A stretch of 64,000 nucleotides of DNA from a virus. Of the stretch, positions 2,694 through 57,015 are shown in pieces (the stretch's first letter is position 1; the number at the start of each line of letters is the position of its first letter). The notes under the pieces were generated by a model, which made no database searches, was not told where the DNA came from, and saw only the letters and a program-made list of their open reading frames with translations. The stretch covers positions 32,001 through 96,000 of the IMG/VR virus record IMGVR_UViG_3300042892_003815; one strand, written 5' to 3'. Position numbers and translations under genes: made by a program.

Positions 2694-2718
2694 AAAAGAG
2701 GACTTAGTCCTCTTTTTT
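2692..2718. terminator. Bidirectional intrinsic terminator
   Basis: AAAAAAGAGGAC-TTA-GTCCTCTTTTTT between convergent genes. Confidence 0.85.
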
Positions 2719-3694
2719 ATGTTCTTGATTGATACCACATTTGTTTTGGTTCTTCTTTAGGTTCTTCCAATTGTTTTGGTTCTTCTTTAGGTTCTTCCTT
2801 TTTAGTAACTTCTCTTGGTATATCTGCAATATTATAACGAAACCATTTATTATTTGGATTTCTAAGATCTGCAGAACCTCTAAGTGTTTCAACATCATCA
2901 TACAAATGATTTACTTTTATACCATATTTTAATGCGTGTATACATCTTTGAAAGTTTCTAGGATCACCTAATAGTGAAAATATCTTCCAAATTTCTCCTT
3001 CAATTTGATCATCTATTAGACTTGGTAGTAATTTCTTAAACCTAAATGCACTATTTCTATCTGAGAATATACCATAATGATACATATTTACTGCTTCTCT
3101 ACCACCCATCCACATAGGTTTTGGATTAGATTGTGGTATTGACAGACTAATTGCCAAATCGGCAGTATCATCATAAAGTTCTTGTAGTGTGTATTGTTTT
3201 GGTGCATCTTCTTCATCCCATTCATCTGGATTATTCCAGCTTTCTAATCCATCATCCCAGTTAGACATATTTATTTTAAACGAAAATAAAGGAACATCCC
3301 ATCCTGGTAAAGAATTACCCATTTTTGATTTTGTTTCTTCTAATGGATCAAAATAAAATTGTATCGTGAAGTATAATTCTCTTTGTGCATCAGTCCAAAG
3401 ATCAAGCATTTCTTCTACTGATATATCTTCATATCTTGTATTGATATCATTTAATCCAGGTGTTTCTTTTCTATTTAAAATAAATTTTGCCTTAGGTTTT
3501 GTAAATTTAACCTTTCTAGATATATCACCATAGTTTTTAACGAGTTCTATATTATAAACACCCCATTCTTTTTCGGAACCATAATCTTTTAACTTTCTAC
3601 CTTTCTCTACTTTATGAGGCATATTCATAAATCTTTGTCCAGCATCTCTATAGATTCTCGGTGTTAGTTCTTCATAAGTTTTAATCCATTTCAT
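2717..3694 (-). CDS. Hypothetical protein with CTS-like N-terminus (MKWIKTYEE) and C-terminal EEPK repeats
   Basis: ORF track; AATATATA element just upstream. Confidence 0.8.
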   Translation of the reverse strand: MKWIKTYEELTPRIYRDAGQRFMNMPHKVEKGRKLKDYGSEKEWGVYNIELVKNYGDISRKVKFTKPKAKFILNRKETPGLNDINTRYEDISVEEMLDLWTDAQRELYFTIQFYFDPLEETKSKMGNSLPGWDVPLFSFKINMSNWDDGLESWNNPDEWDEEDAPKQYTLQELYDDTADLAISLSIPQSNPKPMWMGGREAVNMYHYGIFSDRNSAFRFKKLLPSLIDDQIEGEIWKIFSLLGDPRNFQRCIHALKYGIKVNHLYDDVETLRGSADLRNPNNKWFRYNIADIPREVTKKEEPKEEPKQLEEPKEEPKQMWYQSRT

Positions 3695-3745
3695 AAACTA
3701 TATATTATTTTTTAAACTCACATTTATATTCATCATATAATAAAT

Positions 3746-3895
3746 ATGAGAGAACTAACATTACAAGAAAGAGTACAACTATTTTGTACCAAGTATAAAA
3801 AACATATCTCTTATGGTATCGACTTGACACATGAGGACTTGGACAAACATGATATTGCTAGAAATATTGAAACTAATTTGAAAAAAGATATATAA
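3746..3895 (+). CDS. Small hypothetical protein (49 aa, MRELTLQERV...)
   Basis: Hand translation; preceded by TAAAC-N18-TATAAT at 3713-3741. Confidence 0.5.
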   Translation: MRELTLQERVQLFCTKYKKHISYGIDLTHEDLDKHDIARNIETNLKKDI

Positions 3896-3917
3896 CTAGA
3901 AAATAACAGATTATTAA

Positions 3918-54336: not shown

Positions 54337-55494
54337 TTATTCTTTACATTTACATTCGCAACTATCATCACAATCACACTCTCCTTTTGTGTTATCACAA
54401 CAAGGACACCATTCTTGATTACCTAGTCTTTTTGCTTGTGCCTTTAATCTATTACCGTAAGGATCTTGACGAGTTTCATCACCATTCGCACTAAAATCAT
54501 TAGTTTTATCTGTCATAATCATAAGATTAGTTTCTGGTTGCATAGAGATAGTAGAACTTTGTAGTCCAGGAGTTTGAGTTTGACTCTCATTAAAATCACC
54601 AAATGACTTAACTCTTCTTGTAGGTATATTAGTTTTAACTACATTTTCTGGTTTGTTTGTATCTTTAATAATGAATTCTTTAATGAACGGCCATAATTCT
54701 TCATGATCTAAATCATCACTTGAAAGTGCATCTTTCATGTGTTTAACATTTCCTGGATCATCATCAGAAAAACCAACTTTTGCAACAAATCCAATTTTTT
54801 GTGCATATCCATTTACATCAGTAATAAACTCTCTTAAAGCATCCTCTTTTGCTGCTTCTGGATTTGCAGGTGATCCACCTCTTGATGGTGCAGAAACACC
54901 AACAAAGTGACATAAATCTAAATAGTTTTTAACTAATTCGCTCTGAGAGAATTTTGTGATACTTTCATAACTTCCACCATCTCTTGATTTACCAAAAAGT
55001 TGAAGAAACATAAGTAAACTATCATGCATTTTTTCTTTATCTTGTTGATCTAAATTATCAATGATATATTCAACACCCTTTCTCATACCTTCTGGTTCGT
55101 GACCACGTGCAGTTATAATTGCAAATACAGAACCATTAGTTAAACATTCAATAAAGTCATCCCAAGCAGGTGCGAGTGCATCCATTTGTAATGCTTTAGC
55201 AACATCTTTCTTAAATATCTCTGGATCTTCTATATCTCTAAAGTTTCTAAATGCGGTATTATAATCCAAACCAACGATAGTTTTGCCACCATATTCAAAT
55301 TCTTCTTTTCCTATTTTAGAACGATAAACTGCAAAGTCTGCAGTACTCATACCAACTTCACCACCATCTTCGGTTTGTACCATAATTTCAGTTGGCATGT
55401 TAAGTATGTTGTCATCCCAGTCAAATGCATAAAAAAGTAAAGTTCCTTTACCAGAAACACTTTCTTTGATAAAATTATTAAATTTTAATAACAT
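54337..55494 (-). CDS. HAD-superfamily phosphatase-like protein with CTS-like N-terminus and Cys-rich C-tail
   Basis: MLLKFNNFIKES; AFDWDDNI, IITARGH, GFSDDD; CPCCD...CDCDDSCECKC. Confidence 0.75.
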   Translation of the reverse strand: MLLKFNNFIKESVSGKGTLLFYAFDWDDNILNMPTEIMVQTEDGGEVGMSTADFAVYRSKIGKEEFEYGGKTIVGLDYNTAFRNFRDIEDPEIFKKDVAKALQMDALAPAWDDFIECLTNGSVFAIITARGHEPEGMRKGVEYIIDNLDQQDKEKMHDSLLMFLQLFGKSRDGGSYESITKFSQSELVKNYLDLCHFVGVSAPSRGGSPANPEAAKEDALREFITDVNGYAQKIGFVAKVGFSDDDPGNVKHMKDALSSDDLDHEELWPFIKEFIIKDTNKPENVVKTNIPTRRVKSFGDFNESQTQTPGLQSSTISMQPETNLMIMTDKTNDFSANGDETRQDPYGNRLKAQAKRLGNQEWCPCCDNTKGECDCDDSCECKCKE

Positions 55495-55566
55495 ATTATT
55501 GTAATATTTTTTATTATATATTAAATTTCATTTATAAAAAAAAGAGGACTAAATCCTCTTTCTTAT

Positions 55567-55869
55567 TTATCTTTTATTGAAAAAAGACTGAAAAGATTCT
55601 AGTGCTTTACCTTCTTCTTCATCCTCATCTTCTTCAGACTCTTCACCTTCAGATTCTTCGTCTCCGAAATCTTCTTCTTCACCTTGACCATCAAAATCTT
55701 TAAACGCTTTAACGTCATCTCCTTCTTCATCTTGACCTTGTCCTTCTTCAGGAGCTTCAAGAGTGAATTCTTCAACTGTTTCACCATCTAATTCAGCTTT
55801 AACAGTTACAACACCGTCAACTTCTTCAATTTCGATTTCATATCCAAGTACTTCAACTTTAGTTTTCAT
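55567..55869 (-). CDS. Very acidic small protein (possible head core protein)
   Basis: Glu/Asp-rich; ends ALESFQSFFNKR; late element upstream. Confidence 0.75.
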   Translation of the reverse strand: MKTKVEVLGYEIEIEEVDGVVTVKAELDGETVEEFTLEAPEEGQGQDEEGDDVKAFKDFDGQGEEEDFGDEESEGEESEEDEDEEEGKALESFQSFFNKR

Positions 55870-55917
55870 ATATGTTTATTATTTTTTTATTATATATTAA
55901 ATTATCAAACCTCTTTT

Positions 55918-57015
55918 TTACACTTTTACATACTTGTAATCAAGATTTGGTAGTTTACTTTTAATCACTTTAGTAGCACCTTTTAAATACTTTATATTAT
56001 CATCATAGAATATAACTTTATCAAATCCAGTTTTATCAACTAGCTCAATAATCTTTTCACCTTTCCAACCACCAACATTATAGTGATTTTCATGAGGATA
56101 CATATGTAATCCATATTTAGGATATTCTAATCCTAATTCTTTCATAACCTTCTCAATCTTATCTCTAATTTCCTCTGAACGAGCAGTCACTATACACTTA
56201 TTCTCAATTGAATTATAAAAGTCTGCTAATTCTAATACTTCTGTTGGTAAACTTAAATCAGTTTTTCCAAATATATCTGGTGTGGTGAGATAAACTCTTT
56301 TACCTTTTCTAATCCAGTTTCCTTTTACTTCAATATTCTCACTTGGATCTTCAACATAAATTCTACCGTCCTGCCATTTTAGAACAGATTTGTTTACTCC
56401 AATACTTGAAGTTGATTTATCTATTATTTCTTTTATAGAAACATCTTCTGTTAAGTATTCAATGACAAAATCTTCAAACTCTGGTGTATTCACAAGTGTA
56501 TCGTCAAAGTCGAATACGTATAATGTATCACTATTTTCAAATGATTCAAATAATGATTTTACCTTACTAATAAAACCTTTTGGTCTTACTTTCTCCGCAA
56601 CGGAAATTTCAATGTTCTTTATTTCAGTATCATCATCTAATCTATCAGTGGTCAAAGAACTAATATAACTTTCCATAAAAGTCTTTTGTTCTACATTAGT
56701 GCCATTTTCATATTCACCAATAACATCCATTTTAACATCTTTTATTCTATATTGTCGTGATAACATTTCCAAAAATGGAATAAAATGATTTTTAATATCG
56801 GACCATTTAAACATATTTTCATACCTATTTGGCCAATAATAACTTTTGTTTTCAATAAGTTTATTATCAAATTTTATTACTTTATAATCAAGCCAATTCC
56901 ATTCTTGAATTTCATATTCATAACCATCATCCATAAGATAAGCTAAACACATATCACATAAGTCTGTTAGATTTTCCTTATCAATCGATTCGTTAAATAG
57001 TTTTAAATACTTCAT
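55918..57015 (-). CDS. Two-domain protein: CTS-like N-terminus plus C-terminal HAD domain
   Basis: MKYLKLFNES; VFDFDDTLVNT, IVTAR, K, FYDDN. Confidence 0.75.
   Translation of the reverse strand: MKYLKLFNESIDKENLTDLCDMCLAYLMDDGYEYEIQEWNWLDYKVIKFDNKLIENKSYYWPNRYENMFKWSDIKNHFIPFLEMLSRQYRIKDVKMDVIGEYENGTNVEQKTFMESYISSLTTDRLDDDTEIKNIEISVAEKVRPKGFISKVKSLFESFENSDTLYVFDFDDTLVNTPEFEDFVIEYLTEDVSIKEIIDKSTSSIGVNKSVLKWQDGRIYVEDPSENIEVKGNWIRKGKRVYLTTPDIFGKTDLSLPTEVLELADFYNSIENKCIVTARSEEIRDKIEKVMKELGLEYPKYGLHMYPHENHYNVGGWKGEKIIELVDKTGFDKVIFYDDNIKYLKGATKVIKSKLPNLDYKYVKV

Follow-up and report, generated by a model that had tools for sequence, protein, structure and literature searches.

An N-terminal leader resembling the T4 capsid-targeting sequence is carried by many unrelated proteins of a huge-phage lineage

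Why would many unrelated proteins of one phage begin with nearly the same ten residues? We addressed this question for a 64,000-nucleotide stretch of viral DNA (the window), which comprises bases 32001 to 96000 of the 190,950-bp IMG/VR viral contig IMGVR_UViG_3300042892_003815; coordinates below are those of the window unless marked "genome." Eighteen open reading frames (ORFs) in the window had been proposed to share an N-terminal motif like the capsid-targeting sequence (CTS) of phage T4 and to encode an enzyme payload packaged in the virion (here, the original prediction). The reading that we favor, with moderate confidence, is that this leader is a T4-type capsid-targeting signal, enormously expanded in this clade, which would dock on a protease-fused scaffold and be cleaved from part of the cargo. 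The contig has a G+C content of 29.5% and a CheckV completeness of 33%. Its major capsid protein (MCP) shares 73 to 74% identity with those of the uncultured "huge phages" LR745206 and LR756502 (634 to 642 kb), 52% with that of LR756501 (735 kb), 36% with that of LR756500 (462 kb), and 23 to 31% with those of Lak phages, Tenacibaculum phage PTm1, Flavobacterium phage MaF61, and Sphingomonas phage PAU.

A peptide leader on one gene in five

The leader was described by a 7-column position matrix iterated from a strict seed, [LI]-K-x-[FY]-[EN]-x-F, which was allowed anywhere in the first 13 residues (best of offsets 0 to 7). ORFs scoring ≥8 bits were called tagged; since the matrix was trained on the same N termini, bit scores are somewhat inflated. 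Contig-wide, 39 of 200 ORFs carry the leader, and 14 of these lie in the window. The motif begins at residues 2 to 7 in all 39 proteins, with F or Y in column 0 in 35 of them and F in column +3 in 28. All 18 N termini of the original prediction were found in the sequence, and 14 of them reach the threshold; the remaining four (5878, 27874, 33943, and 46025) are weaker look-alikes. For the ten genes on the minus strand, the listed coordinate marks the lower, 3′ limit of the ORF, and the leader lies at the high end.

Enrichment had been suggested as a check on the motif, and it was evident with the matrix: shuffling residues 2 to 15 of every real N terminus left a mean of 1.5 matches (maximum, 5), compared with 39 for the real sequences. 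Internal positions gave 25 matches in ~58,000, internal-Met pseudo-N-termini gave 4 in 944, and none of 332 shadow ORFs had a leader. The leader was likewise not found in the equally AT-rich Bacteroidota phages PTm1 (0/53 ORFs) and Lak-A2 (0/53) or in MaF61 (37% G+C; 0/47). We rejected a base-composition artifact because the shuffled sequences and the AT-rich control phages lack the signal.

A related explanation is that selection acts on the 5′ coding sequence, which would influence the mRNA or translation initiation in a host that does not rely on Shine-Dalgarno pairing, or would serve as a recombination cassette, the peptide itself being functionless. Such an explanation would suit the promoter-like element that lies only 12 to 13 nt before the ATG in many tagged genes, as well as the AT-rich codons that encode K, Y, F, L, I, and N, the residues of the motif. 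However, codons of the conserved residues vary synonymously between genes (AAA/AAG, TAT/TAC, TTA/CTA, GAA/GAG), and GC-richer relatives replace K with R while keeping the rest of the peptide, which indicates that the peptide is what is constrained, rather than the DNA or its base composition. The loss of signal upon shuffling of the same residues and the lack of leaders in PTm1 and Lak-A2 also argue against an effect at the mRNA level, which we regard as very improbable.

After removal of the leaders, the 39 proteins fell into 37 BLAST clusters, the only one with several members being formed by a 365-amino-acid (aa) protein (55918..57015, − strand; leader MKYLKLFNES; 14.0 bits) and its two paralogs elsewhere in the genome. 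Paralogy was therefore rejected as the source of the common leader. A hydrophobic (transmembrane-like) segment is present in none of the 39 tagged proteins and in 14 of the 161 other ORFs. Searches of 38 tagged or look-alike proteins against Pfam and of 10 against PHROGs gave nothing above threshold besides a SET domain and an NFACT-R domain, and nearly all of the others are orphans. Among the enzyme folds named in the original prediction, SET and NFACT-R are thus backed by Pfam; the nucleotidyltransferase, GNAT, zincin, and nuclease folds found no support in Pfam or PHROGs, and the cysteine hydrolase (isochorismatase-like) and one of two HAD proteins are weak leads only. The two Pfam domains start at residues 24 (NFACT-R) and 34 (SET), both 20 to 30 residues past the leader.

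The SET protein (148 aa; 9983..10429, + strand; leader MRYLKTFENF; Pfam SET, E = 3.6e-14, residues 34 to 137) offers the clearest example of an added tag, in a comparison with tag-free homologs. Among its closest orthologs in the phage clade, 22 of 23 start with M[KR]YLK.FE.F, and the remaining one has the peptide after a longer called start. Many Flavobacterium homologs (~60% identical) have no leader and start directly at the shared segment ...IDA.ESDYLY. The restriction of the leader to the phage orthologs implies that the phage acquired a host gene and added a 10- to 13-residue tag to it, and the comparison indicates a recent host-to-phage transfer. The identity to Flavobacterium chromosomal genes points to Flavobacterium as the likely host of the phage.

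Two further families show the same separation between leader and domain. The NFACT-R protein (130 aa; 26066..26458, + strand; leader MRLKKYKQFNES; Pfam NFACT-R_1, E = 2.1e-14) keeps the leader at ≥8 bits in 74 of 104 orthologs; E11 is invariant, and the linker behind the leader drifts. The SET, NFACT-R, and isochorismatase-like families each comprise >500 orthologs. In the isochorismatase-like protein (205 aa; 9357..9974, + strand; 10.5 bits), the leader MKHLRIFDNF is followed by a variable polar linker and then by a conserved first strand; the leader is present in 100 of 120 orthologs, and the linker behind it drifts here, too. An AlphaFold2 model of this protein has a predicted local distance difference test (pLDDT) score of 84, and its residues 1 to 11 score <50 and lie outside the fold, which begins at residue 15. 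Foldseek returned only weak nicotinamidase/isochorismatase matches (E = 0.04 to 0.2), so its enzyme class remains a lead. Together, these comparisons support the view that the leader is a real, portable, phage-specific tag.

Two ORFs without an N-terminal leader carry a good copy of the motif at the C terminus, one ending in ...NKKFEEFKKL (53074-54270, − strand; 12.4 bits) and the other in ...LIKSFENFKTR (genome 109121-110605, + strand; 16.3 bits). These copies could be C-terminal tags or could have arisen by chance; the T4 protein Alt also has a C-terminal propeptide.

Likeness to the T4 signal and to the head scaffold

The CTS on T4's internal proteins IPII and IPIII is MKTYQEFIAE (PMC8442874). 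It is removed by the prohead protease gp21, and IPI has a similar signal (Mullaney & Black 1996, as reviewed in PMC9026906). Mutagenesis in the Black laboratory assigned targeting mainly to residues 4 (Tyr) and 7 (Phe) and processing to residues 8 (Ile) and 10 (Glu), and Asp at position 10 blocked cleavage but not packaging (PMC9026906).

Alignment of the leaders on the first aromatic residue gives K-x-[FY]-[EN]-x-F, in many cases with [LI]-x-E behind it. The leader shares with the T4 CTS the same Lys, the same aromatic pair at positions i and i+3 (T4 residues 4 and 7), and, where it is present, the same tail, and its short form, MIKKY(N/S)QFINE, follows the T4 signal almost point for point. 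The likeness on which the original prediction was built therefore holds at the residues on which T4 targeting was found by experiment to depend. The matrix, made from this phage alone, gave the N termini of T4 ipII and ipIII 9.4 bits, compared with a threshold of 8 bits that 0.3% of internal windows reach. None of the 72 ORFs in a 50-kb section of T4 (90 to 140 kb) reached 5 bits, and T4 gp20, gp21, gp22, gp23, gp24, gp67, gp68, and Alt all scored <5 bits.

As in T4, a tag of ~10 residues stands at the extreme N termini of unrelated proteins in a phage with gp20-, gp21-, and gp23-type head genes. The differences are also clear. T4 tags a handful of basic proteins, whereas here about 20% of the ORFs are tagged and their products are mostly acidic; in its commonest form, the leader has one more turn, M-[KR]-[YH]-[LI], ahead of the K; and the processing half of the signal is found in only about half of the leaders.

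The head genes lie within the window. The portal protein (T4 gp20 type; 17264..19033, + strand; phrog_213, E = 3.7e-62) has no leader, and its gene has the 8-mer AATATATA at −32. Downstream, a 739-aa protein (21963..24182, + strand; phrog_207, E = 6.8e-28) consists of a gp21-type prohead protease (residues 1 to 170) fused to a scaffold, and the gp23-type MCP (24271..25992, + strand; phrog_138; BLASTP to T4 gp23, E = 5e-7) is a distant relative of T4 gp23. In an hhalign comparison with T4 gp21 (probability 73%, E = 3e-5, 145 columns), GEFDHP and VSSRAAG of the protease domain align on GELNHP and VSSRGLG, and H72, S127, and S128 are invariant in 28 relatives. The domain scored 17.8 bits against Pfam PF03420 (Peptidase_S77), below the cutoff of 27, which marks it as a distant member of the gp21 family. 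An AlphaFold2 model of the domain, built from a shallow alignment, was too poor for a fold search (pLDDT 46), and a PDB sequence search with the 739-aa protein returned only a chance coiled-coil match.

Unlike T4 gp22, the scaffold is fused to the protease and built of aromatic repeats. Residues 305 to 445 comprise ten tandem 14-aa repeats of the form xYSEY[LIV]AExLDxxI, followed by an acidic tail rich in EEHEG, and the fusion is present, with 9 to 13 repeats, in 77 of 77 IMG/VR relatives. Every repeat has [LIV]-A-E, which is the T4 protease site, after an aromatic pair spaced three apart, and the heptad Y-x-x-Y-[LIV]-x-E of the repeat also fits the T4 CTS (YQEFIAE). Outside the scaffold, the heptad [FY]xx[FY][LIV]xE is 13-fold enriched at N termini (9 proteins).

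The MCP has a conserved propeptide segment, SEYAEFHSINENAY (residues 36 to 50; 24271-24450), which is >95% conserved; it looks like the scaffold repeat (SEY.AE) and also like some leaders, such as FESHSINEE in genome ORF 122193. In distant relatives, M-N-E or L-Y-E takes the place of its I-N-E, which aligns with the gp23 residues I-F-E, a pattern that fits a T4-like [LIM]-x-E specificity of the protease.

These comparisons suggest that the leader serves as a portable address label, similar in kind to the T4 CTS and probably homologous to it.

Expression class, distribution, and the remaining tagged genes

The most enriched upstream 8-mer on the contig is AATATATA. Its exact count genome-wide (90) is what base composition predicts (~90), but 62 of these copies are found ≤70 nt upstream of ORFs, so its placement and not its count is the signal. 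When the element was scored as [AT]ATATATA, with tight coupling to an upstream gene allowed, all 39 tagged genes stood behind it or were coupled to a gene that does, compared with 96 of 161 others (P = 5e-8). The same element stands before the genes for the sheath, portal, protease-scaffold, MCP, and endolysin, and it is absent from eight of nine replication and recombination genes (DNA polymerase, two helicases, clamp loader, SbcD, ligase, RuvC-like, and RNase R-like nuclease). The leader itself is found on no gene to which a replication, structural, or lysis function is assigned, in agreement with the claim that replication genes lack it. The tagged genes thus appear to belong to the same promoter-like class as the virion genes. 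No homolog of the T4 late sigma factor gp55 was found on the contig, a result that is uninformative for a fragment that is 33% complete. In about one-third of the ORFs with the element, AATATATA begins 12 to 13 nt before the ATG (e.g., at 40925 and 51969), which suggests leaderless or near-leaderless transcripts.

The leader is specific to this clade; it also occurs in the 462- to 735-kb "huge phage" relatives and in 80 IMG/VR relatives, and it is conserved in orthologs. In the head regions of the 80 IMG/VR relatives, it is present on 90 of 1,700 ORFs. One exact variant occurs in at least 119 IMG/VR stretches, many of them on contigs of 100 to 480 kb, and 11.9% of the other ORFs at the loci found through an exact leader are also tagged. 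LR756501 has 14 scaffold repeats and leaders on 5 of 39 ORFs, LR756500 has 2 repeats and leaders on 3 of 43 ORFs, and PTm1 and MaF61, which have no leaders, have no repeats. Leader use and repeat number thus covary across lineages, although this is suggestive only, since the lineages compared are few and related.

Just past the MCP gene, two paralogous M28-like (aminopeptidase family) genes (26496-27872 and 28486-29763, both + strand) are interleaved with two tagged genes. As a guess, this pair might clear released propeptides. The same genes bear on a second explanation, in which the leader would be a stability or turnover signal: it would act as an N-terminal degron or be recognized by a protease or chaperone, of the phage or the host, that controls how long accessory proteins last. 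The leader is N-terminal and flexible, the two peptidase genes sit among tagged genes, and the M-basic-hydrophobic start loosely resembles N-terminal ClpX recognition motifs. Yet M28 enzymes are aminopeptidases and not readers of degrons, no ATP-dependent protease is tied to the leader here, and turnover would leave the T4 CTS match, the scaffold repeats, and the coregulation with virion genes unexplained. We consider a turnover signal, like an effect on the mRNA, unlikely, and the chance of it is small.

The remaining tagged and look-alike genes are described here by strand. On the plus strand, a 567-aa ORF (5878..7581) with AATATATA at −36 has a weak leader, MKWIKNRNLFLEAK, that scores only 1.7 bits, and the 592-aa ORF coupled to it (7578..9356) has the leader MKNLKYIKLFEAF (16.3 bits). 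A 193-aa ORF (27874..28455) starts with the weak leader MIQKYKRFIE (<8 bits), a 195-aa ORF with MIKKFENF (40936..41523; 18.8 bits), and a 180-aa ORF with MIKKYNQFVDDKINEE (51981..52523; 18.4 bits).

On the minus strand, a 325-aa ORF without a Pfam or PHROG family (2717..3694) has the leader MKWIKTYEEL at its 3694 end (13.8 bits), and a 184-aa ORF (11851..12405) has MNYIKLFEDF at its 12405 end (15.6 bits). The 246-aa ORF at 33943..34683 (phrog_36119, function unknown) has the weak leader MKKYFEF at its 34683 end (5.0 bits), and the 358-aa ORF at 43087..44163 has MISKYNQFLINES at its 44163 end (13.8 bits), with I-N-E at residues 10 to 12. Three adjacent ORFs follow: one of 88 aa with MKYLNLFEEF (45759..46025; 14.7 bits), one of 323 aa with MIKNWNQFIRE (46025..46996), which has a low matrix score but the full T4-like series aromatic-x-x-aromatic-[LIVM]-x-E, and one of 128 aa with MKYLDSYKLFES (46993..47379; 8.2 bits). 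The last two are a 242-aa ORF with MKWIKLNES (50441..51169; 10.2 bits) and a 385-aa ORF with MLLKFNNFIKES (54337..55494; 13.6 bits), for which a HAD/DUF2608-like assignment is a lead only (atlas cosine, 0.87).

Other features of the contig include a 1,025-aa tail fiber-like protein with collagen triple-helix repeats (34723-37800, − strand; Pfam Collagen, E = 5e-22) and a 58-aa ORF (39741-39917, + strand) whose start, MKKVLFAVMAIAAISLTSCKK, has a lipobox Cys and the typical form of a Bacteroidota lipoprotein signal. The contig ends, outside the window (genome 188600-190750), in short tandem repeats that read MNQMYQ... or HPVH... in several frames and may belong to a gene of collagen-like or low-complexity type or may mark an assembly end.

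Capsid loading and other destinations

By analogy with T4, the tag would probably bring dozens of unrelated proteins into the phage head. In the pathway that we infer, the tagged proteins would be made together with the head proteins, and the leader, a flexible peptide with a conserved Lys and an aromatic pair spaced by three, would dock on the scaffolding core, i.e., the gp21-type protease fused to a coiled-coil scaffold of YSEY[LIV]AE repeats. The closing gp23-type shell would enclose the cargo, and the protease would then cut the leader from the subset of proteins with an [LIVM]-x-E or E-[SGA] junction. Leaders that lack such a junction may stay uncut, since the T4 CTS with Asp10 is still packaged. 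The cargo would leave the head with the DNA at infection.

Several observations weigh against this pathway. A site of the form [LIVM]-x-E occurs in residues 3 to 14 of only 49% of the leaders, compared with 23% of other N termini; E-[SGA] occurs in residues 5 to 16 of 49%, compared with 12% of other N termini, and no obvious site is seen in the other half. The linker that follows the leader in the isochorismatase-like family shows no conserved point of cleavage. With a median pI of 5.2, the tagged proteins are acidic, in contrast to T4's basic internal proteins, and, to our knowledge, a share of ~20% of all genes is far beyond any packaged repertoire. The pattern by which the leader resembles the scaffold repeat is short, and the two were compared in lineages that are not independent. 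Finally, the [AT]ATATATA element also precedes the genes for ribonucleotide reductase, a DNA methyltransferase, and PhoH, so the late timing of the tagged genes that had been proposed is not established.

Some of these points fit the main rival explanation, in which the leader addresses another phage-built assembly or partner, such as the lumen of the tail or baseplate, a compartment for replication or translation, or a chaperone or hub protein, and its likeness to T4 is convergent, reflecting the similarity of short amphipathic aromatic helices. The label is what we see and the destination is what we propose, and the lack of a head-protease-type site in half of the leaders, an acidic cargo, and a very large tagged share of the proteome all sit well with an address other than the head. 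Against such an address stand the specific match to the T4 CTS at the mapped residues (9.4 bits) and the presence of a T4-type head module whose scaffold repeats a CTS-like heptad; moreover, no other candidate receptor was found. We therefore regard a different destination as doubtful, and capsid targeting remains the reading that we prefer.

Packaging of many proteins has precedent in phiKZ-like giant phages such as SPN3US, which package tens of proteins with a total mass of >40 MDa (PMC5694885, PMC7411985). Those phages would resemble the one described here, if its cargo is packaged, in carrying many proteins in the head and in using a gp21-related prohead protease that cuts after Glu; they differ in that their propeptides are mostly 80 to 130 residues long, with no single short tag in common, and their MCP and protease belong to different lineages. 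A literature search for such a leader in huge phages found no paper describing it, and it is not mentioned in a survey of jumbo phages (PMC7824862).

A broader proposal, which we offer tentatively, is that throughout the 460- to 735-kb clade a single T4-derived 10-residue label, mimicking the scaffold repeat, loads ~100 soluble proteins (10 to 20% of the proteome, including the host-derived SET methyltransferase), so that the virion would deliver a "starter proteome" along with the DNA. If this is true, the link between leader and scaffold repeat would provide a testable idea of the binding partner of the CTS, which is unsettled even for T4, and the tag would give both a simple sequence rule for predicting virion-borne, injected proteins from metagenomes and a compact handle of natural origin by which foreign proteins could be loaded into large capsids. 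The payload of the largest known phages would then be far more diverse than that of any virion described, which would help to explain how they take over the cell and why orphan proteins are so abundant in them.

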